A stretch of 64,000 nucleotides of DNA, taken from NCBI GenBank assembly GCA_023144005.1, contig JAGLGN010000014.1:29984-93983 (forward strand), written 5' to 3'. Position 1 is the stretch's first letter, and the number at the start of each line of letters is the position of its first letter. Below, in pieces: positions 7,691 through 41,413 of this stretch. Source of the stretch: a bacterium (GTDB lineage Bacteria; AUK180). Under the pieces are notes generated by a model that saw nothing but the letters and a program-made list of their open reading frames with translations, made no database searches and was not told where the DNA came from. The position numbers and the translations under genes are program-made.

Positions 7691-8641
7691 CTATTTAAAC
7701 AATAAACTGATTCCCAAGTGATTTGTCTCGCCGATATCACCGAAGGGAACATAGGCATAATCGAACTGCAGAGTAAGGATATCAACCTTTCTGTTGCCCT
7801 GGGTCTTCTGAAAAGTATGATCAAACCCAACTCCGAAGCCTACGCTTCCTGTCTCCACATTGGAATATCCCACACGAAGAGGGATGGCGCCGAACAAGGA
7901 ATACTCAAGGCCCACAGATATTACCGCCGGATTTCCCGAAGGTATGGATGCCTGAAGCGAAAGATCCATTCCTTTGATGAGTTTGTAATTACCGCCGATA
8001 ACAATATTCATGGGTATCTTTTCTGTCGGTACTTCATAATCGCCTATGACATCCCGCTCGTACAAGAGGCCCGAGCCGAGGTTTGAAATAGCAAGGCCGA
8101 CATTTCCATTGCCTATCTTATACTTCATACCGATATCCATAAGAAAGGTCTCCGCGAGAACATTCGCAAGTTCTTCTTTGTAAAATTTACCCGCGATGGC
8201 AAAGGAGAAGTTATCTCCTAATTTTTTCCCGTATGTCAAAAAGAATTGATTGTAACTCACATCGAACTGCTCGACCGACTCTTCCCAGCTTCCCCATGTA
8301 AATGCGTCTATGGGCTCTGTAAAAAACACATTGACCGCAAGGCCGAAGAAATCTGTTTCCGTGAAGGGAATGCAGAACGCGAAATATTCCATGGATGTAT
8401 CCACGAGGTAATTTGTCTGGCCGATTGAAACAGAGGCCGCGGTAAAGGAAGTTACATTCGCAGGGTTGTAGAATATTGCCAAGGGTTCATTGCTTGAGGT
8501 GACCATGGCATTTCCCAGCGCATATGCCTTTGCTCCGATGGGCATTAAAAGGAATGCTCCGGAGGTCTCACCGTTAGAAGCCGCAAATGTGGATACTGCA
8601 AAAAGGATGACCACCAGTGTTATTATTATTTTTTTCATCAT
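7691..8641 (-). CDS. PorV/PorQ-like (FadL-related) outer-membrane beta-barrel
   Basis: Signal peptide; [16 protein letters not shown]...AIFYNPA N-terminal motif; amphipathic strands; C-terminal HLGISLLF. Confidence 0.8.
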
Positions 8642-8648
8642 TGTCTCC

Positions 8649-11600
8649 TTATCTCACTATTACAAGTTTCCCTTTCTTGACATCCTCGTCATCGTCAGGG
8701 TTGGTTATAACATAGAAATACAATCCGGTAGCTATCGCTTTGCCGTCCTCATTCATCAGATCCCACTTCTCACCACCGTCACCATAAGTGGTTTCGCTGG
8801 TGGCGGAATGCTCAATGGCTCTGATAAGACCGCCTTTAATATCGTAAATAGTAATAGTCGCATTTTCAGTCAGCTGCACGAATACCATGTGATTGTTTTC
8901 CTGAAGAGCGTCCGCGGTTCCGTAGATGAAAGGATTGGGAACACAATGCGCCAGTTCAAGATTCTGCTCTTTATCAAAGTCCTTTGAAACAGTGGCGACA
9001 TTAGAAGGCTGGCTTTCAAGATCCGTGGTTCTGTTAAATGAGGTCACAAAATAGTAATATGTGGCATACTCCGTAATATAGGTGTCAACGAATGTATAAG
9101 TGTCAGCGGTCGTTGCATCGGCAGCACCGATCTTCACAACATAATCTTCATCCAACGGCTCTACACTGTCGTATATCGCGGCACTTGAACATCTGTAAAC
9201 ATAGTATCTGAAAATATCTCCTGCTGCTTTGTCCCAAGTGAGTGTAATACTCTTATTGGTATCTTCGGCCGCAAGGTTCGTAGGATAATCAGGAGAGCTT
9301 TCCAGGGTAAACGGGTCAGATGTCGTAATGTCAATGAAGGGTGTCAGAAAGTCAAGCTTCTTCACATAATACTGATAACTGGAATCACCAGCAAGAGGTG
9401 TATCCGAATAATCAATAATCGTTTCCGGATCTCCTTCAAGGTAGATCCCTGCAATTGTAAATGACTGCGTCTCATACATTACGGTCTTGGTCGTTCCTGT
9501 CTCGGAAAGATAATAGGTCGCGCCCCAATCATCGAGCTTCTCCCACCAGAGCATTGCTGTCGGGGTATCCCAATAAACATCCGTGTTGGTCGTTGAACCG
9601 GTCCAGATCATCTTGTACTGGGTAGTATCAACATCGCTGACCGTGAAGGGTGATTCCCCTTCGATGTTCTGGATGAAGAAATTATTTATTATAAGGTCAT
9701 CAGAGTCGTCATTGAATCCGGGAAGAGCGAGAATGACCTCGTTGAGAGGATCGCTTGCATTGAATGTCAGGTCCGCCGCATTAACGATATATTCTTCACC
9801 GTCGATGAACATCAGGATATCAGATGTCGTATCCGAACCGATAAATTCATAAACACCGCCCTGAAGATATATTGACTCCTCCAAATTGCCTGCTCTGTAA
9901 AGCTCGTACCTATCGAGGTCCTTTTCTCTGGATGCCGGGGAGCTCCAGGATAAAAGAAATACATTGGAGTTATCCTCATAGGCAAATTCACCTTCCAGGT
10001 CAATTGCCGCAGGTACAAGATGGAATTCATAATAAGCTGGCATACTTTCATTGAAATAAGCAGATTCTAATTGCGGGACCGAAGTATTGGAATCCCACCA
10101 CGCATCGTCATTCGAAGAAAGCGCAAATGCGTAATTTATAAAATCGGATCCGTTCATTTCTGATTTGAACTGCTCGGCAGGGACAATAAAATTATCATCC
10201 GTATATGGAGTATATGCAGTAGGCGCACCCTTCAAAGTACCGCAAAGCTGAGTAACATCACCCGTTTTCAACCTTCTGTACTTAATTGACGGATTAGTAC
10301 TGCTCAAGCCGTCCCAAGTGGAATAATATAAATTGTATCCGCAACCGGCGGGAACAGAATCATTGCCAGCGCCAAAATCAATATTGTCCCATACAATATG
10401 TATATTGATACCACCATCCGATACATCATATTTCTCGTACATATCAATGATCTCAGGTTTCGGTGATGGTGATTTATCAAGGCTGTTCGCGGGAGAGTAG
10501 AAATTCGTAGCTCCGACAACGCCTGTTTTATAGGCAGTATCGGCATAGCCGAAGGCCGTATCCAAATTGCCCTTCAATGTAACAAGGTCCGCGCTGTCTC
10601 CATAAGCGCCGGCAATAACAAACGGCACTACCGTGGTCTCACCGGCATCGAGCTGAATCGGGCCGACTGTGACCGCGATCGCATAATTACCGGGAACCGT
10701 TGCAGGGGCATCGAAATCACCCGGAGCAACGAAGTCATCGTAAAGATCGCCGCTTGAAAAATAATCCATGGGATTCAGCGGTTTTAGGAAATTATCTAAA
10801 GTATACCACCAGGTTCTTTCAGGATCACCGGTGGCATCGTAATAGAAAGTATAAGGGGCAAGCTCCGGATTCTTAGTCCATAGCGCGGAGGGCATAACAC
10901 CCGGACCGGAGTATCTATACGAGTACCTTATCAATCTGTTGTCAACATCGGTAAGCCCGGCTATCGACGAAGCGGAATTATCGGGTTGATACTGAACGAT
11001 ATTGAATGCGACCGGCGCATGCGTAAGCGCCTTGATACCAACCGCAACGGGGTGATCCGCGCCGAGAGTAAAATCGTACATAAAGCCGAAATCACCATCA
11101 TAAAGACCGCCGATAGGATCCTGCCATGCGGCATAATCGTTGAATTCGCCGTTGTCTTCAGTCTTGTAATAAAAGATATCATACAAGCCGTCACTGGAGC
11201 TGCTTGCTGTAAGTCCGGAAGTGGTCCATTTTGTATTAATGGCAAGGTCGGCACGGTATGTGATATATATCTCCTTGTCTTCAGCGGAGTTGTTGGTTAT
11301 AATATAATCCTTGATCAGAACATCTTCATAATCATCATAAGTCTCGTCCGCAGAAACCCCCCAATCAGACCATGTAAAAATGCTATTGACCTTTGAGGAT
11401 GCATATTGGTAGGTCCTATGAGTAATGGATATCCCAGAAGCGGGTGAATATGCTTCCGATTTTGTCTCTACCGTTCCACAAACAGAATAATGAGGCTCTT
11501 CATAATTTCCCCAGACATATGTATATCCCTCAAAGGAAAGGACAGGGTTTTGAACCAGATATGATTTCAGAAAAGGGGTATTTCTGAAGTCTTTAAAAGT

Positions 11601-11981
11601 CTCGACATTACCGGCATCGTCAGATATGATAATCGTTCCCATGAACATCTGCTCATACTCGGTCTGCTCGAAATACATACCGTCACCACCCTGAGGGTAA
11701 TTGTAAAACTCACCGTACCATGCATGTCCGGGATGAGCATAAGCATCAAAAACAACACCATCCGAGATACCCGTAGCGGTGCCGCTGTAGATAAAACTAT
11801 TGTCGTAAAACGCACCATTGCCCAAGTAGTCCTGTCCGGTAACCATACTGTACAGGAAATTCGAGTAGAATGTATTGATCTCAACATAGGGCGTTCTGTA
11901 CAGCGTTGCCGCACTGGGAAAAAGCCCAACCACAAGAAGGACAGCAACTACAAGTATTGCCTGAAGCTTGAATCTTTTCAT
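8649..11981 (-). CDS. Large secreted acidic protein with FN3-like domains and a FlgD/T9SS-like C-terminal domain
   Basis: Signal peptide MKRFKLQAIL (ATG 11981, GGAGG RBS); C-terminal VPNPF...IYDIKG...WDL.NEDG...GLYFYVI...GKLVIVR. Confidence 0.8.
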   Translation of the reverse strand: MKRFKLQAILVVAVLLVVGLFPSAATLYRTPYVEINTFYSNFLYSMVTGQDYLGNGAFYDNSFIYSGTATGISDGVVFDAYAHPGHAWYGEFYNYPQGGDGMYFEQTEYEQMFMGTIIISDDAGNVETFKDFRNTPFLKSYLVQNPVLSFEGYTYVWGNYEEPHYSVCGTVETKSEAYSPASGISITHRTYQYASSKVNSIFTWSDWGVSADETYDDYEDVLIKDYIITNNSAEDKEIYITYRADLAINTKWTTSGLTASSSSDGLYDIFYYKTEDNGEFNDYAAWQDPIGGLYDGDFGFMYDFTLGADHPVAVGIKALTHAPVAFNIVQYQPDNSASSIAGLTDVDNRLIRYSYRYSGPGVMPSALWTKNPELAPYTFYYDATGDPERTWWYTLDNFLKPLNPMDYFSSGDLYDDFVAPGDFDAPATVPGNYAIAVTVGPIQLDAGETTVVPFVIAGAYGDSADLVTLKGNLDTAFGYADTAYKTGVVGATNFYSPANSLDKSPSPKPEIIDMYEKYDVSDGGINIHIVWDNIDFGAGNDSVPAGCGYNLYYSTWDGLSSTNPSIKYRRLKTGDVTQLCGTLKGAPTAYTPYTDDNFIVPAEQFKSEMNGSDFINYAFALSSNDDAWWDSNTSVPQLESAYFNESMPAYYEFHLVPAAIDLEGEFAYEDNSNVFLLSWSSPASREKDLDRYELYRAGNLEESIYLQGGVYEFIGSDTTSDILMFIDGEEYIVNAADLTFNASDPLNEVILALPGFNDDSDDLIINNFFIQNIEGESPFTVSDVDTTQYKMIWTGSTTNTDVYWDTPTAMLWWEKLDDWGATYYLSETGTTKTVMYETQSFTIAGIYLEGDPETIIDYSDTPLAGDSSYQYYVKKLDFLTPFIDITTSDPFTLESSPDYPTNLAAEDTNKSITLTWDKAAGDIFRYYVYRCSSAAIYDSVEPLDEDYVVKIGAADATTADTYTFVDTYITEYATYYYFVTSFNRTTDLESQPSNVATVSKDFDKEQNLELAHCVPNPFIYGTADALQENNHMVFVQLTENATITIYDIKGGLIRAIEHSATSETTYGDGGEKWDLMNEDGKAIATGLYFYVITNPDDDEDVKKGKLVIVR

Positions 11982-12237: not shown

Positions 12238-12954
12238 TTAAGAATAGTCACATCTGATGACCAATTTCCACCAAAGTTTAAATAGCGCATAAAAGACCCG
12301 TATCAGTCGGCGGGTCGTAAAGAACCGAGAGCTACCATGGCGGCGGGAATAATGATGTACCGGTATTTGCTTTATTCTATATCCCGCCCGCTCAATTTTC
12401 TTTACCATTTCAACACAAATCACTCCGGTATCGGAATTTATACTTATTCTGTCGAATACATTTTTTCGGATCAGCCGAAAATTACAATCTACTTCTTTTA
12501 GTTTTATTCTAAATACGATCTTCACAAAAATATTGTACATTCTACCGGCAAGAATTCTATAGAAAGGATCTGAACGATTTGCTCTGATACCGTTTACCAT
12601 ATCAATCTCTTCTCCCAGAAGATCGTACAAAACATGCAATTCTCTTAAGTCATACTGACCGTCGCCGTCAGCATAAAATATCAAATCTTTGGTTGAGTTG
12701 GCAAAGCCGCTTTTCAGAGCAGCTCCATATCCCCGATTGATTCCATGATGAATAACTTTTAGGTTTTCATACTCTCCTAACATTCTGGACAATACTTCCT
12801 TGCTTCCGTCTGTGCTGCCGTCATTTACGACTATTACTTCATAGTCATCCGTGAGTTGGCTCATTGTTTCAATAGCAACTTTGACTACATTTTCTATCGC
12901 GTTGACTTCATTTAAGCAGGGAAAAAAGGCGGAAATAGAGGATCGATCTTTCAT
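12238..12954 (-). CDS. GT2 family glycosyltransferase (DPM-synthase-like)
   Basis: FFPCLNE, VVNDGSTDGS, RGYGAA, DGDGQY; start reassigned to ATG 12954. Confidence 0.9.
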   Translation of the reverse strand: MKDRSSISAFFPCLNEVNAIENVVKVAIETMSQLTDDYEVIVVNDGSTDGSKEVLSRMLGEYENLKVIHHGINRGYGAALKSGFANSTKDLIFYADGDGQYDLRELHVLYDLLGEEIDMVNGIRANRSDPFYRILAGRMYNIFVKIVFRIKLKEVDCNFRLIRKNVFDRISINSDTGVICVEMVKKIERAGYRIKQIPVHHYSRRHGSSRFFTTRRLIRVFYALFKLWWKLVIRCDYS

Positions 12955-12961
12955 TTTTGGT

Positions 12962-12990
12962 ATTATATCTATTATCCAAGGATATGTCAA
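12962..12990 (-). promoter_or_regulatory. Perfect-consensus sigma70 promoter, probably leaderless
   Basis: TTGACA-17-TATAAT, then 7 nt to ATG 12954. Confidence 0.75.
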
Positions 12991-13033
12991 TTGATTCTTG
13001 ACTGAGAATGTATATTTAAATCTGAATGGGAAG

Positions 13034-13975
13034 CTATTCCACTTCCCTTTTTTCGCGAATAACGAATTGGGGAGATCTGTTGGTATTCAGAAAGAGGCGG
13101 CCGATGTACTCCCCTATAACGCCAAGCGATAAGAGTTGGATCCCACCAAGAAAGAGCAGCACAGACGCAATAGACATCCAGTCCGGAGTTGCTAAAGTAT
13201 TAAAATATATTCTTTCCACAAGGGAATATATGAGAAAAACAAAAGCGATAATTGAAACGAATATCCCCATCCATGTAATTGTCCGCAAGGGGATAATTGA
13301 GAAATTTGTAATTGAATTACTCCATACAGACAGCAGCCTTCGCATAGTATAATTGCTTCGGCCCTTTTTGCGTTTGCGGTGGGTGACATCTATCTGCCCA
13401 TAATTATCCGTTGTCCTCATGACCAGACAGTCGATACAAGGAAAGGGGCCCTCATACTTCAGCATTTCTCTCAATACAGACCTTGTGATAATCTTGAATG
13501 ATGAAAGATAGAGCCCTTTTCGTTTTTTAAGCAACAGCGTTGCCATTCGATTATTCACCGCACTACCGAAATTTTTAAATAGAGACTGGCGTTTTCGGCT
13601 AAACCGCCCGAAAACGACATCAAGATCATTCTCTTTCATGTGCGTCAACAGGACGGGGATATCTTCCGGACTTTGCTGCAAGTCGTCATCCATTATTATG
13701 ACCTTGCCTCCACGGCATGATCGAAGGCCGGCAAAGACAGCGTTATCCTGGCCGAAATTCTTTGACAGACGGATAATATTTATTTTGCCGGATTTATCGT
13801 ATAAGCTATTCAGAGTATTCCATGAATCATCTCGGCTTGAGTCGTCCACATATATTATTTCATATGATCCCGAGATATCCTCCATGGCGGAAGTTATCTT
13901 ATCCGTAAGTTCTCTGAGAGTGCCCTCGGAGTTATATACGGGAATGACAACAGAAAATTCTTTCGATTCACTCAT
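13034..13975 (-). CDS. GT2 polyprenol-phosphate glycosyltransferase (ArnC/GtrB-like)
   Basis: VVIPVYNSE, VDDSSRD, NFGQDNA, MDDDLQ; two C-terminal TM helices followed by GVIGEYIGR. Confidence 0.9.
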   Translation of the reverse strand: MSESKEFSVVIPVYNSEGTLRELTDKITSAMEDISGSYEIIYVDDSSRDDSWNTLNSLYDKSGKINIIRLSKNFGQDNAVFAGLRSCRGGKVIIMDDDLQQSPEDIPVLLTHMKENDLDVVFGRFSRKRQSLFKNFGSAVNNRMATLLLKKRKGLYLSSFKIITRSVLREMLKYEGPFPCIDCLVMRTTDNYGQIDVTHRKRKKGRSNYTMRRLLSVWSNSITNFSIIPLRTITWMGIFVSIIAFVFLIYSLVERIYFNTLATPDWMSIASVLLFLGGIQLLSLGVIGEYIGRLFLNTNRSPQFVIREKREVE

Positions 13976-13980
13976 GAGAG

Positions 13981-14009
13981 ATTATAACCTAAATCACTTG
14001 AAGAATCAA
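13981..14009 (-). promoter_or_regulatory. sigma70-type promoter, probably leaderless
   Basis: TTGATT-17-TATAAT, then 5 nt to ATG 13975. Confidence 0.65.
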
Positions 14010-14078
14010 TTTCACAATTGATACTATAACAATCCGGATTTTTGCATCCGATCCACTTTCGTACTCTACATTCAAATA

Positions 14079-21421: not shown

Positions 21422-21426
21422 GGTGA

Positions 21427-30307: not shown

Positions 30308-30456
30308 TATTTTTCTTCCAAAAACCCGTAATACGATTCATTGGACCTGAGATTTCCCTCGATCGTATAATTCTTATCAAAGGCCAGAACCAGGATCGCG
30401 GCAATCGCAATGATAATTATTCCTATTAAAATAAAGGTCTTCTTTCCTTTTTTCAT
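30307..30456 (-). CDS. Unannotated 49-aa single-pass membrane protein
   Basis: Hand translation MKKGKKTFILIGIIIIAIAAILVLAFDKNYTIEGNLRSNESYYGFLEEK*; TAATG overlaps at both ends. Confidence 0.75.
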   Translation of the reverse strand: MKKGKKTFILIGIIIIAIAAILVLAFDKNYTIEGNLRSNESYYGFLEEK

Positions 30457-32447
30457 TAACTTCTCCAGTCAAGATAGAATTTGAAAGCCCTCTGCGGAAC
30501 CGTATTATCAGCCCTTGCCGAATTGTCCTGAATATAATACCTTCTTTTGTACCCTATTTTCAGCTTCAGATTCTTTCTCCAGAGGTTTTTGCTGTAATCA
30601 ACAGACCACTCCCGGTATTCCTCTGAGGTGGATGAGTCCGACTTCCTGTAAATATTATTGTCCGTGGATTTAAATGAGAACAGGAATGTACCCAGAGCGG
30701 GTTTCCAGTTCGCCTTCAGCTGATAGGATGCGTTGGCCTTTCTCTGAGGCAGTGAATGTTCCATATAGGTATTGAAGCGGTAAACGCCTGTCAGGCGTAA
30801 TTTCTCGGATAGATTGTAATTAAAAGTCACATAAGTCCTGGTGCTTTTGTCCGATTCGGAATAATCCGTAATATATGAATCATTCAAGTCCCTTGCCAGA
30901 TCGTTATCTTTGTACCGCTGCGTCACCGCCATATCAACGAGCGGTGTTATAGGATATTGAAATTTTACCGAGCCGTCGAAATTGGTCTGAAGGGTTGAAT
31001 AATATCTCCAGATATCCGCTTTGGGAGTGATCTCTAATTTCCCCAATTTTAAAAGCGCATCGAATTTAATGCCCCTTTCGTTCTGGGCGGAAAGCTCCGC
31101 AGGAGATTCATATGTAGCGAATGTATATGAGTAGGGATTTTCAAATTCCCTGTGGAAATCCCTGTAAATAAAATTGATCCGCGCGGTTTTCTTTTTCATG
31201 GTCATCTTCAATAAGAAGCCGTGAGCGCCGGATTCCAATTGCCCGAATTCCGCCTGAATAGCCGATTTTTTAAAAGGAGTCCACCGCATATTCAATCCCC
31301 ATACCCATGCATCGAACATGTCTTCAGAGTAATTATTCGGCTTGTAGAGATCAGAGGCATAGATCTCCTTATTATGATAAACGGTCATTCCGATAAAATT
31401 GTCCTCTCCGCCGATTCGCATATGTCCGCCGAAAATGGTCTTGTTGACATAATTCGGAATGGAAAGAGCGATCGTGTCTTCGTCGAAATCGGTCTCTGAA
31501 TACGCCGATTCATCCGCGCTGAAATCAGCCGAACTGACCAGAAGATGCGAATACTGATAGAGCTTGTCCTGTATCTGTGACGCGAAGATGAAAATCTCCG
31601 CCGGTCCCAGCACCGTTCGCATGCCGGCACCCAGGAGATTCAGATTAAAATCGGAAGTAACATCACTTGAACGGTCTCCTTTGAAGCCGTAGAGATTTTT
31701 GTTATCGGATTCATTAAAGACCACGCCAAGGCCGAAGCCCGCCATGTAATTTCCCGTGATCAATTGGAAGTTCTTTGTATTCCAATTTATAAATACCTTA
31801 GGCAGGGGCCATATTGTTTTCTTCGGGTCAACTATCACTTCGCCGGGCTGAAGGAAGATCTCGCCGTTTTCATCATAGGTAACAGGCCCGTCATATTCCT
31901 CAAAGCTGTATGTAGCGTATCTGCGTTCCTGAAGAATTCCTATATCCAATACCTTTCCGAGGCGGAAGCGGTACTTGAACTGTACATAGGGCGTTTCTTC
32001 CGATTTGGTCGTGGAAGAGACCTCGTCCCGGAATTTAAAGTTGAGGTCCGTTTTCCTTTTCAATACCTTCTTACCCTTGACCTTCTTTATCTTGACTGGA
32101 GGAATGATACGCATAAATCCCTCAACAAAACTGAAGTCGGTACGCCCAAGGATCTTTTTGAGCGGCTTGTCATCTTTAAATGGCCGGTTCTTGATGATCT
32201 CATTAGCGATCTCAAGGTTTACCTTGGGAAGCCGTAACAGCTCGCTCTTGGGAGCGCTATTGACCTCTATCGGATTTGAGAAGAGTTCCCAAAGCATAAT
32301 ATACTGCTCTTGATCGATATCTCCGGACTCGTAGAGATCCGCGATCTCGTCTTCCGTAGATATGGGTATCGAAAGATCATAATCCTGAGCAAATGCAAAA
32401 GAGGCCAAAAACAAAACGATCAGAAATAGTATTCTACCTTTCATCAT
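30456..32447 (-). CDS. Helix-hairpin-helix domain + predicted outer-membrane beta-barrel protein
   Basis: Signal peptide; IEVNSAPKSELLRLPKV...IIKNRPF (ComEA-like HhH); long amphipathic-strand region ending FYLDWRS. Confidence 0.75.
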   Translation of the reverse strand: MMKGRILFLIVLFLASFAFAQDYDLSIPISTEDEIADLYESGDIDQEQYIMLWELFSNPIEVNSAPKSELLRLPKVNLEIANEIIKNRPFKDDKPLKKILGRTDFSFVEGFMRIIPPVKIKKVKGKKVLKRKTDLNFKFRDEVSSTTKSEETPYVQFKYRFRLGKVLDIGILQERRYATYSFEEYDGPVTYDENGEIFLQPGEVIVDPKKTIWPLPKVFINWNTKNFQLITGNYMAGFGLGVVFNESDNKNLYGFKGDRSSDVTSDFNLNLLGAGMRTVLGPAEIFIFASQIQDKLYQYSHLLVSSADFSADESAYSETDFDEDTIALSIPNYVNKTIFGGHMRIGGEDNFIGMTVYHNKEIYASDLYKPNNYSEDMFDAWVWGLNMRWTPFKKSAIQAEFGQLESGAHGFLLKMTMKKKTARINFIYRDFHREFENPYSYTFATYESPAELSAQNERGIKFDALLKLGKLEITPKADIWRYYSTLQTNFDGSVKFQYPITPLVDMAVTQRYKDNDLARDLNDSYITDYSESDKSTRTYVTFNYNLSEKLRLTGVYRFNTYMEHSLPQRKANASYQLKANWKPALGTFLFSFKSTDNNIYRKSDSSTSEEYREWSVDYSKNLWRKNLKLKIGYKRRYYIQDNSARADNTVPQRAFKFYLDWRS

Positions 32448-33922
32448 TCACCTCCCTGTCCATTGTCAACAGCTGGATCGTATTCTCCCGTTTTTATCAT
32501 ATTTCTCATATTCTCAAAGGTCTTGGGGCCTATTCTGGGAACATTCATAATATCCTCTATGTTCTTAAATCCGCCGTTTTGCTTCCTGTAGGAAAGAATG
32601 TTCGCCGCTGTCTTCACTCCTACGCGCGGAAGTTTCTGCAGCTCCGCACTGTCCGCGGAGTTGATATCTATTAGCGGTCCGCTGTAAGAGGTCTTCGAGG
32701 CGGTGGAAGTGGACGAGGAACTGCGTGACGGTACAATTTGAGACGATGACTCATATTTACTGCCAACGGTAATATAGGACCGTATTTTTTCAACGGTCTT
32801 AGCGCCGATCCTGGAGACATTCTGCAGGTCTTCCACTCTTCTGAACGGCCCGTTCACCTTCCGGTATTCCACTATACGCTCTGCCGTCTTACTGCCGATA
32901 CCCGGGATCGCGGATAGCTCCTCCGCATTTGCGAGGTTAATATTTATCCTGCCGTTGATCACCGAGAGTTCGGGTTTGGATTCTTTGTTTCCGAGTCCAA
33001 AGGCAAAGGTATGTGTGGCGCCCAGCTCCGGATGTACCTTCAAGGCGTATGAAACCGCCATACCGCCACCGTAAATACCGAGACCGGCAGAATAGGAAAG
33101 ACGCTCCGAGTGAAGATATTCAATGCCGCCGAATAGAGCAAAGTTATCCGTCATATCATACTTGATGCCAAAATGATATTCGGAATAGAGGTCCCGTTTA
33201 GCCGCGAAATTTTCCAGATATGCGTCATAGTCGGCAAAATCACCGACCGCCTCTTCTATCTCCGCTTCCTCGGCGTCGGTATAGCTCCCGAGTCCGTAAG
33301 TATGTTTCAGAAACGATGCGGGAATATTTGCGATCAAATTGAAATAAATATTCAATTGTACAAATGGCGTATATGATACCCCTATGCCGACATCCCTCGC
33401 CATGTATTCCTGGCCGATATACGGCGCCGAAACATTTCTGAATCTTGCTCCGAAATAAAGTTCCTGATTTACAAAAAGCACCATTCCCATATCCAGGGCA
33501 AGTGTGGATGCCGAACCGATCTCATCGATAACGACACTCATATATTTCCCTTTGAAGCCAAGTGCGAAATTAGAGCCCACATTAAAGGCGCCGGCGAATT
33601 GTATCTGCTGCTCCGCATACAGCCATGAGCCGAATTTTATAAGGTTCAGGCCCATTGTCATGGAACCGAAGCGCTTAATATAATTTGCTGAGGTATTTGC
33701 GAGCTCATCCATGCCGTAGAGCCGGGATGTGGTAAAATTCAAATGGACATTCTCCAGATAGGCCAGCATGGCGGGATTATTGTATATCGCCTCCGGGCCC
33801 ATAAGGACCAGATTTGCTCCGCCGGTAGCGAGGTTCAGGGGCATATTCCCCTCAAATTCAAAGGCAGTCCATCCATTGGCGGCCAGAATGATCGCGCAAA
33901 CTACTATTATTATTTTTTTCAT
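32444..33922 (-). CDS. PorV/PorQ-like beta-barrel fused to two ComEA-type HhH DNA-binding domains
   Basis: ATGGA...AIYNNPA barrel start; ININLANAEELSAIPGIGSKTAERIVEYR and IDINSADSAELQKLPRVGVKTAANILSYR, joined by a Ser/Thr linker. Confidence 0.88.
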   Translation of the reverse strand: MKKIIIVVCAIILAANGWTAFEFEGNMPLNLATGGANLVLMGPEAIYNNPAMLAYLENVHLNFTTSRLYGMDELANTSANYIKRFGSMTMGLNLIKFGSWLYAEQQIQFAGAFNVGSNFALGFKGKYMSVVIDEIGSASTLALDMGMVLFVNQELYFGARFRNVSAPYIGQEYMARDVGIGVSYTPFVQLNIYFNLIANIPASFLKHTYGLGSYTDAEEAEIEEAVGDFADYDAYLENFAAKRDLYSEYHFGIKYDMTDNFALFGGIEYLHSERLSYSAGLGIYGGGMAVSYALKVHPELGATHTFAFGLGNKESKPELSVINGRININLANAEELSAIPGIGSKTAERIVEYRKVNGPFRRVEDLQNVSRIGAKTVEKIRSYITVGSKYESSSQIVPSRSSSSTSTASKTSYSGPLIDINSADSAELQKLPRVGVKTAANILSYRKQNGGFKNIEDIMNVPRIGPKTFENMRNMIKTGEYDPAVDNGQGGE

Positions 33923-33931: not shown

Positions 33932-36900
33932 CTACATCCTTTTCCCAATGGCAACGACTTCTTTCTTATAAATAGATTTCGTTTCATTTCTCAATTCGAT
34001 GTATAGAATATATACACCCATGGGCAGCGGTCGGTTACGGTTATCGTCGCCGATCCATTTCACAGAGAAAGGCCCCGGCGGAAGAACTGTCTTTTCCGAT
34101 AATGTTTTTACTTCTCTTCCGGCAACATCATATACGCGCACTGTAAGCACTCCCTCGGAAACAACATGCAGGGAGATCTCGGTATATAATCTGTTCGGAT
34201 CGCTGCCGTCATTAACAAAGCTCCTCGGGGAGATCTCGATCTGCGTAATATTGCCTGCGGGGATCTCCGTTTCATCGCAAGGTCTTCCCATCGTGGGTTC
34301 TTCCGTGATCGTCCAATCGGCAAGCGTGTTCGTATCTGTAAATTCCGCATCACGCGTTATAGATGATTCTTCATCCACATTATTTGATCTGATGGCATTG
34401 GTGGCGGCATAGATCCAATCGTAAATATATCCGCTGTCCGGCTGCTCGCCAAGAGGATAATCGGGGTATTTCGCCATATTGGGGAAGAATTTGTATATCT
34501 CTCCGTCCCAATGATATGCTCCTAATTTGGGATCGGATGAAAAATATACCTCATAGAAATCGCTGTATTCAATATAAGAGATATCTATCAATTCTGAAAC
34601 GACCCATGTCGACGCGGCGGGAACCACCTGTCCGTCAGCTATAAGATCACCGTTCTCGTCAAAGGGGAATATCTGTTCTTCTGAGTTTCTTTCAGCCCAT
34701 ACAACGGCATCTTTGATATTTCCGGAAAAATCCCGAAGCTCAAGATTTTCATCCGTGCTGGAAAGTGAAAGTTTTGAAAGATAGACCGTTAATATGCCGT
34801 CACTTCCCGCGGTAAGTTCGCTGTCGCTTTCATTTCCTACGGTGATAATGACAAATTCTCCTGTTTTCAAGGTCGTTCCAGGCTGAATTATCGCGACTAC
34901 ACTGTCCGTCAGCATGAAACAGCCCCCGACATCTACGCCTGCCCCGGAATTGCCGTCATCCTTGCAATAAAGCTCTATCCAATCCGGAAATCCAGAAGGT
35001 GAGTAAAAGTAAACCTCTGATATCACGATATCCGTTTCGGCGGGCAAGGTATCGATCGGATGGCCGTAACCCGGCGTAACGACCAGTGTATTCTTCCAGT
35101 CAACTTTATCATTGGTATCCGTATTGAAGTAATCCCTGACAATGGAGCCCTTTGAAAAATCAGAAGAGACACAGTCGATCTCTTCGCCGTCAACGGGAGA
35201 GCCGTAGCCTATATTCCATTGGCCGACAGCAAAGGCTTCTTCAAAATCATCGTCGGACAGTGAACCGCCCTGATCCGCCCAGCAGACAAGGTCTATCAAT
35301 TCGCCGTTCGGCGTAAATATACCCATTTGTTCGTCCGAATCGGTTATTCCTGTATCGGCGGTCGTCACAAAATATGATGCCTTGGTTAGAGGAAGCTCCC
35401 AGTCATCAGCATTATCATATATTAACAATCCGTAATCGCCGGTACGGAAAATACCGGTTGAAAGCTTTTTATCGGCACTTGCATCCAGGTCCGTAATGGA
35501 GGCGCGGGTGCCGTAGGTGGATATCGAATCAAGGTCATCTATATAAAAACCCCCAAGATCGATACCGTTTCCATTATTACCGTCATCTATCATATAAAAT
35601 TCAACAAAATCCTCGCCGTATGTCCCGATAGAATCTACTTCGGTAATGAGTATCACCGGGTCTTTTACCGTTATTGACTCGAAATAATCCGAAACGGAAT
35701 TACCGGTATCCGAGATCGCATTTGCCTTTTGATCAGCGCCCGTGACCCAGAAACCTATGACCGAAAGATTGGGAATATCCACGGTGGAGCCTTTGGTAAG
35801 GTCAGCTCCGCCTTTATAGACTAAGGAATTTCCCCATATAATGCCGTCTTCGCTGCCGTCCGCGCCGGAGCTGTAGACAAGTGTTACCGTACCGGTATCA
35901 ACAAATACTCCCGTGGAGGTCTTGATCTCATACCATAAACTCAAAGTAGATGTATCTTCAATACCACCCTCTTCTGAAAGCATCAACTCAAATGATGTTG
36001 CTGAAAGAGAAACACGGGGGAAATCGCCCGAAGGGGACATAGAAAGAGGAGCAGGGCCGGTAATATCGATCGGCAAGACCGTTAGGTCCGCGGAAACAAT
36101 GCCGTCCACTCCTGTATTTTCCGGTGTTATTTCAATAACTCCCGGAGATAGGCATCCGCCGAAATCAACCGTGCCCTCGCCATTGATCAGGGTCAGCGCG
36201 ATCGTGTCGGTGCCTCCCGAAAATTGGCCGGTTCCGGTGGGAGAAGCAGATAGCGTAATATCCAATGTCGGAGACGAGGTATAAACAGAGTAATTCTCAT
36301 CAAGAAGCTTAACCGTGACCGTCGTGGTCTCCGGCGCACCTCCGAAAACTTCTATTCTGGTGGGATATACGAAAGCACGGAGATTGATAGAGGCCTCGGT
36401 AGGCCCGACCGAATTTGGGTGACGGGGCGTACCGTAGATCGGATTACCCAGATAATCAGTGCCGTATATGGTAATTAGGTCATTATCCGCCCAATTTGAA
36501 GAATCGTTGCCGTCCTTTCCGAGAATGATCTTTTCCATGGAAACACCGCCCGATTGGCCGGCGAACCATCCATCAGAACAGTCCACTTGATCAATGAGAT
36601 TAGCGGAGCTATCATACAAACGGAGGTTTTCTCCGTCATTTGAAAGTTTACTGTAGCCAAGATCTTCCGAATCACTTCCGATATCGGCGATCGCCTGTTT
36701 TACCGGCTCAGTAGTGCTTCTGTATTCTATCAGATAATATGCTCCTGATCCGATAGTGGTCGTATTGGCAGTGGTAAGGTCAACAATTATTCCCCCGCTA
36801 TCCCAAATATACCATCCGGTAAGATCGATATCGGAACCCGTGGGATTGTAAAGCTCGATCCATTCATACCCGCTCTGGGCAATGGTACCGCTCCATGAAA

Positions 36901-36994
36901 GTTCTGAAATAACAACATCGCCGCTTGAAGCGGAATGTATAGCAAGGGGCAGTATTAAAAGGACTATCAAGAATGTTAGTATTTTTTTCATCAT
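33932..36994 (-). CDS. Secreted protein with three lamin-tail domains and a FlgD/CHU-like C-terminal domain
   Basis: VVISE...EWIELYN, LITEV...DFVEFY, IVISEV...DWIELY; C-terminal VYDVAGREVK...W.G...LPMGVYI. Confidence 0.85.
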   Translation of the reverse strand: MMKKILTFLIVLLILPLAIHSASSGDVVISELSWSGTIAQSGYEWIELYNPTGSDIDLTGWYIWDSGGIIVDLTTANTTTIGSGAYYLIEYRSTTEPVKQAIADIGSDSEDLGYSKLSNDGENLRLYDSSANLIDQVDCSDGWFAGQSGGVSMEKIILGKDGNDSSNWADNDLITIYGTDYLGNPIYGTPRHPNSVGPTEASINLRAFVYPTRIEVFGGAPETTTVTVKLLDENYSVYTSSPTLDITLSASPTGTGQFSGGTDTIALTLINGEGTVDFGGCLSPGVIEITPENTGVDGIVSADLTVLPIDITGPAPLSMSPSGDFPRVSLSATSFELMLSEEGGIEDTSTLSLWYEIKTSTGVFVDTGTVTLVYSSGADGSEDGIIWGNSLVYKGGADLTKGSTVDIPNLSVIGFWVTGADQKANAISDTGNSVSDYFESITVKDPVILITEVDSIGTYGEDFVEFYMIDDGNNGNGIDLGGFYIDDLDSISTYGTRASITDLDASADKKLSTGIFRTGDYGLLIYDNADDWELPLTKASYFVTTADTGITDSDEQMGIFTPNGELIDLVCWADQGGSLSDDDFEEAFAVGQWNIGYGSPVDGEEIDCVSSDFSKGSIVRDYFNTDTNDKVDWKNTLVVTPGYGHPIDTLPAETDIVISEVYFYSPSGFPDWIELYCKDDGNSGAGVDVGGCFMLTDSVVAIIQPGTTLKTGEFVIITVGNESDSELTAGSDGILTVYLSKLSLSSTDENLELRDFSGNIKDAVVWAERNSEEQIFPFDENGDLIADGQVVPAASTWVVSELIDISYIEYSDFYEVYFSSDPKLGAYHWDGEIYKFFPNMAKYPDYPLGEQPDSGYIYDWIYAATNAIRSNNVDEESSITRDAEFTDTNTLADWTITEEPTMGRPCDETEIPAGNITQIEISPRSFVNDGSDPNRLYTEISLHVVSEGVLTVRVYDVAGREVKTLSEKTVLPPGPFSVKWIGDDNRNRPLPMGVYILYIELRNETKSIYKKEVVAIGKRM

Positions 36995-37000: not shown

Positions 37001-37885
37001 CTACCACCGATACCCAAGACCGGCAGATACCGTACCCGGCAATAGCGAGCCGAACCCGTATGAGACATCAAGCTCCAACTTGTTCAATCCGATCTGAGTG
37101 CCGAAAAGAATATTTCTTGTGGTGTCATTCAATATGTCGCTGGCGCCGAATCTCAATCTTATCCCTTTGTTGATATTAAAAGCTAAGCCCGAATTCAATA
37201 TCATTGAAGATTCTCTGATGACCGCCTGCGTTAAAAGCGTCATCGCCGCGCCCGCATCACCCATTGTCCATTTATACCGGAAACCGAGGCCGCCGGATAT
37301 AGCAGGGAACGCACCTTCTTGTTCAAATTCCAGCTTCGTGCCCCAATTATTTACAAAAAGCCCTATTAGAAGCTTTTTCATCTTAAAAGCGAGGCCGAGG
37401 TCAACTAAAAATGAATCCGCGGTATATGTATCGATGCGGCTGAAAAGGTATTTTATATTTACACCGGCATAAGTGTTCTGACCGATGGCATCTCCGAAAG
37501 AAAGCACAAGGCCAAGATCGGAAGAGTGAAATTGTCCGGTAACCGTGCCTATCTCGTCCCGGGAATCCTGATATCCCCAATTGCCGTAAATGGTGGAAAT
37601 GCCGACATTGCCGAAATTCTCAAGATATACGGCAGTCGATATCAGAGAGACATCCATCTCCTCATAATATTTTCTATAGCTTGTTTTAAAATAATTCCAG
37701 CCCGAGATCGGCATCAATGCCGGATTGACCAGCATAGAACCGAAATCATCAATATCAACGCCTAGGACGGAACCGCTGCCGCGTGCTCCCGAAGTCGGGT
37801 CAATATTAAAGACATTGGAAGAGCCCATTGCGGCAATGCAAACCGAGATCAAGAGAGCCATTATGAATATTACAGATCTCTTCAT
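37001..37885 (-). CDS. PorV/PorQ-like outer-membrane beta-barrel
   Basis: Signal peptide; SGARGSG...MLVNPA; C-terminal SAGLGYRW. Confidence 0.8.
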   Translation of the reverse strand: MKRSVIFIMALLISVCIAAMGSSNVFNIDPTSGARGSGSVLGVDIDDFGSMLVNPALMPISGWNYFKTSYRKYYEEMDVSLISTAVYLENFGNVGISTIYGNWGYQDSRDEIGTVTGQFHSSDLGLVLSFGDAIGQNTYAGVNIKYLFSRIDTYTADSFLVDLGLAFKMKKLLIGLFVNNWGTKLEFEQEGAFPAISGGLGFRYKWTMGDAGAAMTLLTQAVIRESSMILNSGLAFNINKGIRLRFGASDILNDTTRNILFGTQIGLNKLELDVSYGFGSLLPGTVSAGLGYRW

Positions 37886-37888: not shown

Positions 37889-40800
37889 CTACCTCACCAC
37901 CGAAAACTTGACCATCGCGGTAAAACTATCCGCCTTTACCAGGCCGAAATATATACCCGCGGGGATCTTTCTCCCATATCTGTCCTTCAGGTCCCAAGTT
38001 ATCTGATGGAATCCCGCGGATAGCACGGCATCGTGTATCTCTACCACCTTTCTCGCATCCAATGTCAAAATGGTCAGCGTTACATTGGATTCTTCCAGTA
38101 TGTTTATCTCGAATGTTATCGTGTCAACATCCGGAGTTGCCGGATTCGGATATGGGGTATATATATTATTCCCGTCAAATGAAGTGTCAATGAAATACTC
38201 CAGCAGATCAACGCAGGTGAATTCCACTATATGCTTTCCCGCCTCGGTGGACAGGGTCAATGTAAATGATGCCGAACCATCTGTGCCGGTAAGGGCGGAA
38301 GAAGGAGCGATAGATGCACCCAGGGGAGTGTCAATAAGCGAGGTCGCGACATCCGCTCCATACAATCCCAAGCCGGTATCAGAAGTGATATATACCAAGA
38401 TTTCTCGATCCTTCCCAGGGGCGGTGTGCGGGTCTTCCGCGGGGTCAAATGTCATTACAGCGGGAGAAAGGACATCAAATTCAGGCGAATTCAGCTCAAC
38501 AAGATCAGTACCATTCTCTAAAATACTTATCCCGAATTCATATACACCTTCCGCATCAGGGAAATTATAACTATTGAAATCTATGCTCACCGAGCTTGCC
38601 GCGGTAATGCCGGCAATGGTTATGGTAGAGCCGGAAACCGTATAGGCAACCGTATTGGAAGCATCAACGGTTACTGTCAGATTTGCTAATGTTGGTTGAG
38701 TAAAGCTTGAATGAACAACGATATACAGATCATCGTCCCCATCCAGCTTGGGATATCCTACCGTATAATCAATACCAAGATCTCCATTGCCGCCCTGGCA
38801 AAGTGGGACATTTGGGGTTTTTGAAATACCATAAGAGCCGGAAACCGCAGAGTCCACATTACCGAAAGGCGAGGAATTTCCCGACTCATCAAGGGCTTTC
38901 ACTGAAATATAATATGTCGTGCCGGCAGGCAGCATTGTCAGTATATGCTCCTCAGCCTGAGCCGGCAGAAGCGGTGTTATACCTGAAGTATCGTACTTAT
39001 CCGAGGCGATGAAGTCCGCGTCATCAGTGATCGGGGCGGTGGAATAAGCGATCTCATAGCTATCGCATTGAGATACGCCCAGCCCGTTCTCGCCCACCGC
39101 GGTAAAGTTAATTCTGATCCCGCCGATAGTGGGATGGGAATATGCGGCAAAATCATTGATCACCGAGGGCGGGCGATTATCGATGGTGTTGAAAGAAAAG
39201 AGGTAGTCGCCGCCGGGAGCGCCGTCATCGTCTCCGTCAAGGCCGTTGCCTGAAATATCCATAGCTCCGGAGTAAACGGTAATATCATATGAAGTATCTT
39301 CCGAAAGCGGAGCCGTAAGGGTCATCGTCAATGTCTCATTTCCGGCATCCCAGGAAAGCGTATATGCTACAGCCGGGATTATCTCAAGCGATAAATCCAC
39401 CGATACGGTATTCATTTCCTCTGAGAATGTGATAACAATATCGGTCGCTGTATCTATATTCACTCCCGAATCGATCGGAGATGTGTATAGAACGGTCGGT
39501 GAGGCATAATCTCCACAGCTTGTACTGTAATTTGAGTTTTCAGCACCGGGTGTGGCATTAAGAGGATTATTGTCGGCATCAAGGCCGTTTATTGTAATTC
39601 CGTCATTGGAGCCCCAGTTACCGGCGACCGAGCCGCCGACACATGGGTCAATTCTCTCCATTGAATAATAAGCGGGTGAGCCGGTACCGCCGAACCATCC
39701 GGCGCCACAATCGACCAGATCAACTGTCACATCGGATGAATTCTTTAAAGTTATCGTCGCGCCGGTGTTACTCAAGCTGAGAGATGTATCCACAAATCCG
39801 CCCGCAACATCATTCACGGTATCCTCGGAATTTTCAATAAGATAATATCCGAAAGCGGGAATAGTTCCCGAAAGTGTTTCTAAAATAAACCCGACTCCCT
39901 GAACATACCATCCCGTAAGGTCGATCCCCTCACCGGTCGGGTTGTATAACTCTATCCACTCATCGGAAGAAGAATGAAGTGTGCCACCGAAGGCAACTTC
40001 ATTTACAACAACCTTTCCGGTCATTGACTCATATACTTCGATCGATGGAGAAGCTCCGATCGCTGAAAGCGTACCCGTACCTTTCGATCTTACGGTAAAG
40101 GCATATGTTCCAAGTGTGTCGCACATAGCGCCGGGCGAACCCAATGACATATCTCCATAAATAAATATCAGCGTATTTCCGGTATCAAGCGTAGTAATAT
40201 CCGCTATTATCTCCCAACCGGTGGTCTCATTTCCTGTAATAGACGCGATCGAGGCCACGGCATCACCGGAAAGGGAAAGATACCCTTCTGATGCCGGAGC
40301 GCCGTCCTGCGGCTGTGACCAGTTCGCGGGAATATATAGCGAGACCTGCCCGCCCGCCATATCAAGCGATGCGGTATAGATCACATTTACACTCTGATGA
40401 TTATCCTTGAGAATATTAGAGGGATATGCGACCGCTGTACCGGTGCCGTCACCATATTGCGATGTCTGAAAATTGAAGGTATATGTATCTCCGCCCGAAT
40501 CATCCACTGAGGCGGAATCAGCCAGCGTATTGCCCGCTACATCCGCAACTACGGTCTTATCGATCTCAATATAATATGTCGTTCCGAATGACAGCGTATT
40601 ATGTGTGATCGTAAGTGTCTGTGTAGTATTTGACCATGTATATCCTTCTCCTCCGGGGGAGGGTGATATAATTATCCCCAAAGTGGAGGTATCCGCCATT
40701 TCCTCATCAAAATCAATCGTAATATCCTGAATCGGATTGACCGCGGAAGCGCCGTTGACCGGGGCCGTCGCGGTTATAGTCGGGGGTGTGGTATCCGCCG

Positions 40801-41413
40801 CTGCGCCGCCGCAGGTTGAGACTTCAACTGAATTGGGCTGTCCTGGAGTTCCATTGATAGAGGGCTCGCCGTTTATAGTGATCCCGTCATTTGTCGCCCA
40901 GTTAGAGCAAACATCGCCGGGCGAACACGGATCGATCCTCTCCATCGAATAAAAACCCGCGGCTACACCTGCGCACCAGACCCCTGAATTGTCATCAGCC
41001 GTATCTATCACATTACCGGTACCGTCCTGACCGTCGTATAAGATGATACTGTCTCCACCTACATTCATTCCAATTGTAGCGTCCCAGATCTCAATGGTAG
41101 CTCCCGAAGTGAATACTACAGCATCATTTGCATATATCAGATAGCCCTTGGCGGGAATAATAGTGGTATTATTTCCATCGGCAGCAGAAATATTCAGGAC
41201 AACCCCGGTATCGGCACCATAAATTGACCAGGCGGCTATATCGATCGGAGCATCTGTGGTATTATAGAGCTCTATCCACTCATCACTTGTCGAGCCGGAT
41301 GTACCCGCCCATGCGATCTCATTGATAACAACATCACCGGGAGTCGCAGCTTCCACGATCTGCATAGATGTCAAAAGCAAGGCAGCAATAAATATGATCG
41401 TTAATTTCTTCAT
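37889..41413 (-). CDS. Secreted protein with 2 lamin-tail, 2 SbsA Ig-like (Big_5), FN3 and FlgD/T9SS-like C-terminal domains
   Basis: VVINEI...DEWIELYN x2; DTTPPT...ITIDFDEEM and SPTVLYTSP...ITFSEEM; TTYYISVKALDESGN; PYPNP...WDLKD..G...GIYF...KFSVVR. Confidence 0.85.
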   Translation of the reverse strand: MKKLTIIFIAALLLTSMQIVEAATPGDVVINEIAWAGTSGSTSDEWIELYNTTDAPIDIAAWSIYGADTGVVLNISAADGNNTTIIPAKGYLIYANDAVVFTSGATIEIWDATIGMNVGGDSIILYDGQDGTGNVIDTADDNSGVWCAGVAAGFYSMERIDPCSPGDVCSNWATNDGITINGEPSINGTPGQPNSVEVSTCGGAAADTTPPTITATAPVNGASAVNPIQDITIDFDEEMADTSTLGIIISPSPGGEGYTWSNTTQTLTITHNTLSFGTTYYIEIDKTVVADVAGNTLADSASVDDSGGDTYTFNFQTSQYGDGTGTAVAYPSNILKDNHQSVNVIYTASLDMAGGQVSLYIPANWSQPQDGAPASEGYLSLSGDAVASIASITGNETTGWEIIADITTLDTGNTLIFIYGDMSLGSPGAMCDTLGTYAFTVRSKGTGTLSAIGASPSIEVYESMTGKVVVNEVAFGGTLHSSSDEWIELYNPTGEGIDLTGWYVQGVGFILETLSGTIPAFGYYLIENSEDTVNDVAGGFVDTSLSLSNTGATITLKNSSDVTVDLVDCGAGWFGGTGSPAYYSMERIDPCVGGSVAGNWGSNDGITINGLDADNNPLNATPGAENSNYSTSCGDYASPTVLYTSPIDSGVNIDTATDIVITFSEEMNTVSVDLSLEIIPAVAYTLSWDAGNETLTMTLTAPLSEDTSYDITVYSGAMDISGNGLDGDDDGAPGGDYLFSFNTIDNRPPSVINDFAAYSHPTIGGIRINFTAVGENGLGVSQCDSYEIAYSTAPITDDADFIASDKYDTSGITPLLPAQAEEHILTMLPAGTTYYISVKALDESGNSSPFGNVDSAVSGSYGISKTPNVPLCQGGNGDLGIDYTVGYPKLDGDDDLYIVVHSSFTQPTLANLTVTVDASNTVAYTVSGSTITIAGITAASSVSIDFNSYNFPDAEGVYEFGISILENGTDLVELNSPEFDVLSPAVMTFDPAEDPHTAPGKDREILVYITSDTGLGLYGADVATSLIDTPLGASIAPSSALTGTDGSASFTLTLSTEAGKHIVEFTCVDLLEYFIDTSFDGNNIYTPYPNPATPDVDTITFEINILEESNVTLTILTLDARKVVEIHDAVLSAGFHQITWDLKDRYGRKIPAGIYFGLVKADSFTAMVKFSVVR

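Follow-up and report, generated by a model that had tools for sequence, protein, structure and literature searches.

When a large secreted protein ending in a type IX-like C-terminal domain (CTD) is encoded directly before an outer-membrane barrel, is that barrel a private partner of the protein or one of several interchangeable carriers? The question is raised by three gene pairs in a stretch of 64,000 nucleotides (the window) from an uncultured bacterium, represented by a metagenome-assembled genome (MAG) that is 96% complete. The current view is that type A signals have one PorV in common, and the only cognate carriers established in type IX secretion (T9SS), to our knowledge, are the PorP/SprF barrels of Bacteroidota that serve type B signals. 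Type B CTDs require cognate PorP/SprF shuttles, some of which are tied to the peptidoglycan anchor PorE; examples are SprB/SprF and Fjoh_3952/3951/3950 of F. johnsoniae, and PG1035-PorP-PorE of P. gingivalis (PMC12618676, PMC9143113). Two PorV-family barrels, PorV and PorQ, form the PorU-PorV and PorZ-PorQ sub-complexes of the P. gingivalis attachment complex (PMC5562754, PMC10947112, PMC10202324), and in Porphyromonas the uncleaved CTDs of PorU and PorZ stay bound to their barrels (PMC10202324). Literature searches on PorV-like paralogues, and on T9SS in Mcinerneyibacteriota and other FCB phyla, returned no description of the arrangement reported here, and we found no paper on such pairs for PorV-family barrels outside Bacteroidota.

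Three cargo genes and the barrels that follow them

All three pairs lie on the minus strand, with gaps of 3-9 bases between cargo and barrel. Cargo 1 (8649..11981, ~1,110 aa) is a secreted protein with a signal peptide (N-terminus MKRFKLQAILVVAVLL); its open reading frame (ORF) reaches a TTG at 12032, the likely start being the ATG at 11981. Searches of its passenger against Pfam and NCBIfam gave zero matches to a known domain, and its T9SS-like CTD occupies the last ~90 aa (8652..8921; TIGR04183 20.4 bits). Barrel 1 (7691..8641, 316 aa), an outer-membrane barrel of the PorV/PorQ family, begins 7 nt past it. The second cargo (37889..41413, 1,174 aa) has a signal peptide, two LTD, two Big_5 and one fn3 domain by Pfam, and a CTD (37892..38161) detected by both TIGR04183 and an HMM built from this genome's own CTDs. 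Barrel 2 (37001..37885, 294 aa), also of the PorV/PorQ family, starts 3 nt after this cargo and ends 6 nt before the third; since it lies between two cargoes, its partner is assigned by majority gene order alone. The third cargo (33932..36994, 1,020 aa) carries a signal peptide, two LTD domains (Pfam LTD 85 bits) and a CTD (33935..34204; FlgD_ig E 1e-4), and is followed after 9 nt by the gene for barrel 3 (32444..33922).

Coordinates and HMMs thus agree with the first-pass annotation, which had described three proteins ending in a FlgD/T9SS-like CTD, each directly followed by the gene for a PorV/PorQ-like barrel; the CTD of all three is an Ig-like domain. For the third gene the description was right about the PorV-like part and incomplete about the rest: the PorV-like 14-strand barrel (32993..33922) makes up aa 1-310 of a 492-aa protein that is not a plain barrel, being fused to two ComEA domains (HHH_3).

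To which family do the barrels belong?

The PorV/PorQ family is represented by the NCBIfam model NF033709, with a curated cut-off of 90 bits. Barrel 1 scores 115 bits and matches F. johnsoniae PorV (6h3i_F) by phmmer at E 5e-7. Barrel 2 scores 77.8 bits (E 1e-21), significant yet under the curated cut-off, and reaches 81.5 bits against a PorQ model. Barrel 3 has no match to a public HMM, NF033709 at E<0.01 included; its residues 1-310 nevertheless align to positions 1-294 of an HMM made non-circularly from 13 other barrels of the genome, barrel 3 being left out (E 2.9e-16), and its homologue P0010 has the classic start motif RARGMGNAF...NPAGLA. Barrel 3 was modelled with AlphaFold2 at modest quality (pLDDT 69, TM 0.4-0.5); the model has 14 strands, and its best Foldseek matches in the PDB are the F. 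johnsoniae PorV structures 8gl6_F and 6h3i_F. Thus the HMMs for barrels 1-3 and the fold for barrel 3 place these proteins with PorV/PorQ, the relationship on which the first-pass annotation had made its reading depend. A PorP/SprF identity, the other barrel type that it had mentioned, falls away: genome-wide, TIGR03519 gives one weak match (23.6 bits; cut-off 90.6).

Is there a general PorV elsewhere in the genome? Seven of its barrels pass the NF033709 cut-off, and the three best scorers, on contigs C37, C20 and C1, likewise have cargo neighbours, and none of the genome's barrels qualifies as an unpaired general PorV.

The CTDs of the cargoes

Public CTD models are weak on the window cargoes, with FlgD_ig, Por_Secre_tail and CHU_C matching at E 1e-2 to 3e-5. 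The type A model TIGR04183, which has 27 matches genome-wide (25 above its cut-off of 23 bits), gives 23.8 bits for the 1,174-aa cargo and stays under the cut-off for the other two. The genome-own HMM, in whose construction the three window cargoes were included, matches cargo 1 at E 1.1e-22, the 1,174-aa cargo at E 4e-16 and the 1,020-aa cargo at E 1.1e-15; it describes a sequence family common to about 40 proteins of the genome. The CTD of the 1,020-aa cargo is modelled by AlphaFold2 as a 7-strand beta-sandwich (pLDDT 83), for which Foldseek returns the FlgD Ig domain at E 3e-4, PorU (6za2) at rank 23 and PorZ (5m11) at rank 35. The predicted fold is that of a generic Ig sandwich, with FlgD ranking above the CTDs of PorU and PorZ. 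Flagellar FlgD was considered and rejected: the FlgD_ig matches are the C-termini of secreted proteins of 300-2,800 aa with signal peptides.

Could these be type B signals? The type B model TIGR04131 gives sub-threshold matches only, inside repeats of giant proteins and in none of the paired cargoes, and for cargo 1 a weak CHU_C match (E 1e-3) is no better than the FlgD_ig match. On sequence grounds, then, the cargo CTDs appear to be type-A/FlgD-Ig-like and not type B. Within this family the paired CTDs are the less canonical ones, TIGR04183 detecting 8 of 17, against 18 of 23 in proteins lacking a neighbouring barrel (p 0.011).

Pairing across the genome and its relatives

Every one of the 17 PorV-family barrels in the genome directly adjoins, on the same strand, one of ~40 CTD ORFs; with ~40 such ORFs among ~2,640, the chance expectation is ~0.03 (3%) per barrel. 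Gaps range from -4 to 66 nt, and the cargo precedes the barrel in 15 pairs. These units are retained in related genomes. Among 21 clear barrel orthologues from five relatives, 20 keep the orthologous cargo, judged by both CTD and passenger, over comparisons spanning family- to class-level divergence, and in 16 of the 21 orthologous pairs the conservation of the CTD equals or exceeds that of the passenger. Barrel 1 has orthologues in eight relatives, preceded by a CTD ORF in every case where the sequence before the barrel is available, and the orthologues of barrel 2 keep the same cargo. The identity matrices of barrels and CTDs correlate (Mantel r 0.54, p 1e-4), a signal that co-duplication alone would yield. 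Adjacency and synteny together are evidence of functional linkage, short of physical contact. The dedicated one-to-one logic that the first-pass annotation proposed for the window therefore extends to the whole genome, with 17 of 17 barrels paired, orthologous units kept across the phylum and divergence correlated, the binding itself being our inference. We consider it probable that the units are cargo/carrier pairs of the type IX kind with PorV/PorQ barrels as the carriers, in which each barrel binds and holds the uncleaved CTD of its neighbour.

The same data bear on a simpler account, in which all barrels are equivalent PorV copies that lack partner specificity and each large cargo gene comes with a shuttle so that supply meets demand. 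In its favour, a single PorV serves every type A CTD in Bacteroidota, the contacts being plastic and mostly hydrophobic (PMC12618676), the Mantel correlation can be produced by co-duplication, and 23 of the 40 CTD proteins lack a barrel of their own, which means that some barrel must be shared. Interchangeable copies are nevertheless hard to reconcile with paralogues that are just 13-35% identical and yet keep their cargo in 20 of 21 orthologues, with the greater divergence of the paired CTDs, or with the distinct periplasmic fusions described below, which imply distinct roles. We regard this account as unlikely.

Alternatively, the barrels might be FadL-like channels that import whatever the surface protein has bound or set free, with no binding of the CTD. 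FadL, TodX and TbuX rank below PorV among the fold matches of barrel 3, one cargo/barrel pair lies behind a TonB-dependent receptor and another next to a FadL-like barrel, and pairs of the window sit in an uptake-type operon. An import function tied to the passenger is difficult to square with paired passengers that are unrelated to each other (LTD, S8 subtilase, fn3, repeats), the CTD being the sole element common to all. PorV/PorQ barrels, with which HMMs and fold group the proteins, have CTD binding as their known role, and in two Ignavibacteria genomes the PorU gene lies directly upstream of PorV, the same order of CTD protein and barrel. Import channels are accordingly improbable, and private pairing through the CTD remains the preferred reading.

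Multiple PorV copies are not unique to this phylum: 10 matches were obtained in a Cloacimonadota MAG and 6-8 in Ignavibacteria genomes, and some of these adjoin CTD ORFs.

A probable sortase-less type IX-like system

Which parts of the secretion machinery accompany the pairs? The first-pass annotation had called for a genome search for SprA, and an SprA-like translocon was found outside the window, as a 1,794-aa ORF on contig C1 (TIGR04189 211 bits, cut-off 200). It is the only one in the genome, is shorter and more divergent than Ignavibacteria SprA (~2,200 aa, 889 bits), and is also present in relatives. No PorU sortase was found genome-wide, NF033707 matching only the CTD part of cargo proteins, although the same model detects PorU at 903-913 bits in the two Ignavibacteria genomes; nor did the genome contain a recognisable PorZ. 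The presence of an SprA-like protein and the absence of PorU fit a "T9SS-like" system, as had been suspected from the window, and one that lacks the sortase. The GldK model gave only a 31.6-bit match, to its FGE-sulfatase-like part, while models of GldL, GldM and GldN had zero matches here and likewise zero in Ignavibacteria that have SprA, PorU and PorV. Since no GldKLMN motor or ring is recognised, SprA-dependent transport of the cargoes is assumed.

The lack of a recognisable motor, ring or PorU, together with the strict one-to-one gene linkage, might suggest that each barrel translocates its own neighbour independently of SprA, in the style of two-partner secretion. We give this very little credence, as the SprA-like translocon is conserved in the phylum and 23 CTD proteins come without a barrel of their own. 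Moreover, judging from the usual pore sizes of barrels, 14 strands leave too narrow an opening for folded cargo with several domains, here up to 2,845 aa long.

Periplasmic fusions and the ComEA operon

Seven barrels in the genome carry C-terminal fusions (ComEA x2, OmpA+SPOR, or CsgG/LpoB-like). Both termini of a 14-strand barrel are on the periplasmic side, and these extensions are therefore periplasmic. In barrel 3 the fused part (32444..32953) comprises two ComEA-type HhH domains (aa ~324-386 and ~420-480) and a tail; residues 324-490 match HHH_3 at 156 bits in two stretches and TIGR00426 at 124 bits (cut-off 53), and the fusion is kept in six homologues of 37-52% identity. Overlapping this gene by 4 nt on the same strand is the gene for a 663-aa protein (30456..32447) with an N-terminal HhH domain (HHH_3 E 1e-5) and a large barrel-like body. 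The last large gene of the operon, also on the minus strand, encodes ComEC (27407..30307; DUF4131 and Competence domains). The gene order matches that of a 51%-identical relative, and the operon that contains the barrel 3 fusion is of the DNA-uptake type.

In its usual form ComEA is either a soluble periplasmic protein or one held in the inner membrane. As in competent bacteria, two complete HHH_3/ComEA DNA-binding units are encoded here beside ComEC, but they are appended to the C-terminus of a PorV-like barrel of the outer membrane whose paired cargo is a surface LTD protein. It is conceivable, and we offer it tentatively, that surface lamin-tail protein, PorV-like barrel, fused ComEA, HhH large barrel and ComEC form a pilus-independent machine for DNA capture and uptake made from type IX parts. 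On the same tentative reading, PorV-family barrels would be general, modular connectors of the outer membrane, each holding one CTD protein on the outside and many of them bearing a periplasmic module on the inside. The 663-aa protein is a weak paralogue of C13_157164, a protein with HHH_3 and a large barrel-like body encoded on contig C13 after an LTD/OB-fold cargo and a barrel. This paralogous module supports a recurring design of LTD cargo, barrel and HhH large barrel.

How might the pairs work?

Each cargo, as its visible signal peptide indicates, would be exported by Sec and would then cross the outer membrane through the single SprA-like translocon, after which its C-terminal Ig-like domain would be captured by the PorV-family barrel encoded alongside. 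The absence of PorU makes it most likely that the CTD is not cleaved and that the barrel acts as a durable, non-covalent anchor. A barrel with a periplasmic extension would then link one particular surface protein to one particular module in the periplasm. Pair 1 would be a stand-alone unit, whereas pairs 2 and 3 would place two lamin-tail-domain proteins on the surface side of the ComEA/HhH-barrel/ComEC operon.

This scheme shares with PorU-PorV and PorZ-PorQ the barrel family and, presumably, the holding of a protein through its uncleaved CTD. It differs in that there are 17 pairs rather than two, that the partners are diverse surface proteins and not parts of the secretion machinery, and that the genome, without PorU or a recognisable PorZ, has seven barrels with periplasmic fusions. 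With type B signals and PorP/SprF it shares the one-to-one genetic linkage of cargo and barrel and, probably, a barrel that decides the destination of its cargo; the barrels are of another family and the CTDs are not of type B. The logic of cargo, barrel and peptidoglycan anchor finds its counterpart here in a barrel fused to OmpA+SPOR, although the wall- or DNA-binding module is part of the barrel protein instead of a separate PorE.

In this sortase-less candidate phylum the PorV family has branched into 17 private partners, each for one type-A-like tail, which suggests an ancient and general role of the family in holding one particular CTD protein. The 17 natural, deeply diverged CTD/barrel pairs provide material for asking how recognition is encoded. 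We know of no outer-membrane DNA route in these bacteria. The fused periplasmic domains are a way of wiring a surface protein to the cell wall, and those of the window may also wire surface proteins to a route of DNA uptake.

Cargo and barrel gene pairs

Three large ORFs with signal peptides lie on the minus strand (8649-11981/12032, 37889-41413 and 33932-36994), each followed on the same strand by a smaller ORF (7691-8641, 37001-37885 and 32444-33922, respectively) after a gap of only 3-9 nt. The first-pass annotation had described these as three proteins with a C-terminal T9SS-like domain (CTD), each directly preceding its own PorV/PorQ-like barrel gene, and this arrangement holds in 3/3 pairs.

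Are the smaller ORFs really PorV-like? The first (barrel 1, 7691-8641) passes the PorV/PorQ family model NF033709 at 115 bits (cut-off 90). The second (barrel 2, 37001-37885) has a significant match to the same model that falls short of the cut-off (77.8 bits, E 1e-21), and scores 81.5 bits with PorQ. Public models give no barrel match to the third protein (barrel 3, 32444-33922), in which residues about 324-490 comprise two ComEA HHH_3 domains. However, residues 1-310 match end to end an HMM built from 13 other barrels of the genome, with barrel 3 excluded (E 2.9e-16). An AlphaFold2 model made with seven homologues (pLDDT 69) has 14 strands and, after them, two HhH bundles; its best PDB fold matches, 8gl6_F and 6h3i_F, are F. 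johnsoniae PorV, with FadL, TodX and TbuX next. Thus, the family-model scores, the left-out HMM and the 14-strand fold identify all three as PorV-family barrels, in agreement with the first reading, and barrel 3 is a PorV-family barrel-ComEA fusion. The fusion is kept in six homologues, at 37-52% identity.

The source genome is a 2.67-Mb MAG, 96% complete, of which the window is contig C6:29984-93983; the phylum is represented in GTDB by nine species genomes. Calling ORFs over the whole genome gave about 2,640, of which 40 are CTD ORFs and 17 encode PorV-family barrels. The pairing of one barrel with one cargo extends to the entire set: 17/17 barrels have a CTD ORF as their direct same-strand neighbour (gaps of -4 to 66 nt), where chance alone would put a CTD gene beside a barrel in about 3% of cases (40 of about 2,640 ORFs). 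The order is cargo to barrel in 15/17 pairs and barrel to cargo in 2/17. One of the latter two loci, C30:16040-22433, encodes a TonB-dependent receptor (CarboxypepD_reg, Plug and barrel), then a PorV-like barrel and an LTD cargo.

The C-terminal tail is the only element common to the paired cargoes. Their passengers, the remainder of the proteins, include LTD domains (at least six), an S8 subtilase, fn3 domains, repeat proteins and others without assignment. The remaining 23 CTD proteins have no private barrel, that is, none encoded beside them, and their tails are more canonical: the type A CTD model TIGR04183 detects 18/23 unpaired but only 8/17 paired tails (p 0.011).

The nature of the tails

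Public models (FlgD_ig, Por_Secre_tail and CHU_C) match the C-termini of the window cargoes weakly, with E 1e-2 to 3e-5. TIGR04183 matches 27 tails genome-wide; among the three window cargoes, only 37889-41413 reaches its cut-off. A CTD HMM built from barrel-adjacent tails finds a C-terminal copy in 40 ORFs and gives E 1e-15 to 1e-22 for the window cargoes, which are themselves among its sequences. A model of the cargo 33932-36994 tail, made with 36 paralogous tails, shows a 7-strand sandwich (pLDDT 83). In Foldseek, FlgD Ig domains are its top matches (E 3e-4), with the CTD-bearing proteins PorU (6za2) at rank 23 and PorZ (5m11) at rank 35. The predicted fold therefore agrees with that of a T9SS CTD, though it is not specific to it. 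No type B tails were found in the genome.

Conservation and co-divergence

Barrel paralogues within the genome share 13-35% identity and tails 9-40%, with a correlation between the barrel and tail identity matrices (Mantel r 0.54, p 1e-4). Regions around barrels were compared in five relatives at family- to class-level distance, using the 21 barrels at least 35% identical to one of this genome. In 20/21 the barrel retains a cargo that has the partner of the corresponding barrel as its best match, by tail and by passenger alike; the sole exception is a barrel type with its own cargo downstream. Wherever a relative's sequence extends upstream of its barrel 1 orthologue, a CTD ORF is found there. 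The tail is conserved at least as well as the passenger in 16/21 orthologous pairs, which fits a retained, working domain. Conservation and co-divergence show a lasting functional linkage of barrel and cargo, as distinct from physical contact.

Rates differ among pairs. Barrel 2 diverges much faster than the tail of cargo 37889-41413 (34-38% versus 65-67% identity at family level), while most other pairs show the opposite or parity.

Periplasmic extensions of the barrels

C-terminal extensions are found on 7/17 PorV-family barrels. Besides the two ComEA units of barrel 3, there are six extended barrels outside the window (C17:74417-76501, C27:4591-5988, C13:47806-49167, C17:66519-67967, C36:32711-34144 and C17:32328-33653): one has a coiled coil with OmpA_C and SPOR, and five have a Lys-rich linker and a CsgG/LpoB/TolB_N-like domain. 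Barrels in the length classes of the OmpA+SPOR and CsgG-like fusions reappear in relatives. A barrel with an even number of strands has both termini in the periplasm; all of the extensions are periplasmic domain types, in accord with this rule. The OmpA+SPOR-fused barrel looks like a fused form of the type B CTD/PorP-SprF plus PorE arrangement.

Pairs in a DNA-uptake-type operon

In their operon, pairs 2 and 3 come immediately after DUF3006, and the gene order is LTD cargo, barrel, LTD cargo, barrel-ComEA, HhH large barrel, 48-49-aa ORF and ComEC. This order is kept in a relative at 51% identity. The small ORF (30307-30456, about 48-49 aa), between the HhH barrel and comEC, is called as a 48-aa gene at the same position in relatives; a 383-aa ORF after comEC (26255-27406) has no Pfam match. 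Among the proteins with an LTD domain are extracellular nucleases, ExeM for example (PMC6085458), and therefore a candidate role of the LTD cargoes in DNA capture is plausible by analogy.

A second module resembling this operon lies outside the window at C13:155879-162804. It encodes a single cargo with two LTDs and an OB-fold, followed by a PorV-like barrel, a protein of 872 aa and a FadL-like one of 424 aa. The 872-aa protein combines an HHH_3 at its N-terminus with a large barrel-like body and is weakly related to window 30456-32447 (22% identity over 429 aa). Between the operon and pair 1 is a glycan cluster (12238-26154) with two GT2 genes, an 841-aa Wzy_C/O-antigen-ligase-like protein, a spermine-synthase-like/MFS fusion, WbqC, a methyltransferase, GNAT and three ORFs (339-703 aa) without significant Pfam match.

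Secretion machinery and a proposed pathway

Which secretion components accompany the pairs? The first-pass annotation had suggested searching the genome by HMM for SprA and PorU, among others. An SprA-like protein of 1,794 aa is encoded at C1:24395-29779 (211 bits, cut-off 200) and is kept in relatives. In Ignavibacteria, by comparison, SprA has about 2,200 aa and scores 889 bits; the translocon of this phylum is reduced or divergent. PorU is absent from the genome, where its model matches cargo tails only, while two Ignavibacteria genomes reach 903-913 bits with it. In both of these, the best PorV directly follows PorU, an order shared with the pairs. The GldK model reaches 31.6 bits at most, through its FGE-sulfatase-like part. 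The GldL, GldM and GldN models have no match here, which is uninformative because they fail in Ignavibacteria too.

The best-supported reading is a pathway of capture and retention by private barrels. In it, cargo is exported by Sec and may then pass through the SprA-like pore; the private barrel would capture its tail and the cargo would be retained on the surface, retention being proposed because there is no sortase. There is precedent: the uncleaved CTDs of PorU and PorZ stay bound to PorV and PorQ, and CTD protection by 'cognate PorV-like barrels' has been speculated upon in the same review (PMC10202324). Type B CTDs require cognate PorP/SprF shuttles, some linked to the peptidoglycan-binding PorE (PMC12618676, PMC9143113). 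No description of private PorV-family barrels for type-A-like cargo was found in the literature searched.

SprA has been reported across FCB phyla (PMC12611786), and the T9SS 'may be present' outside Bacteroidota (PMC11285876). PorV-family genes number 6-10 in a Cloacimonadota MAG and in two Ignavibacteria genomes, and some of them lie behind CTD ORFs. The cargo/barrel unit is not limited to this phylum.
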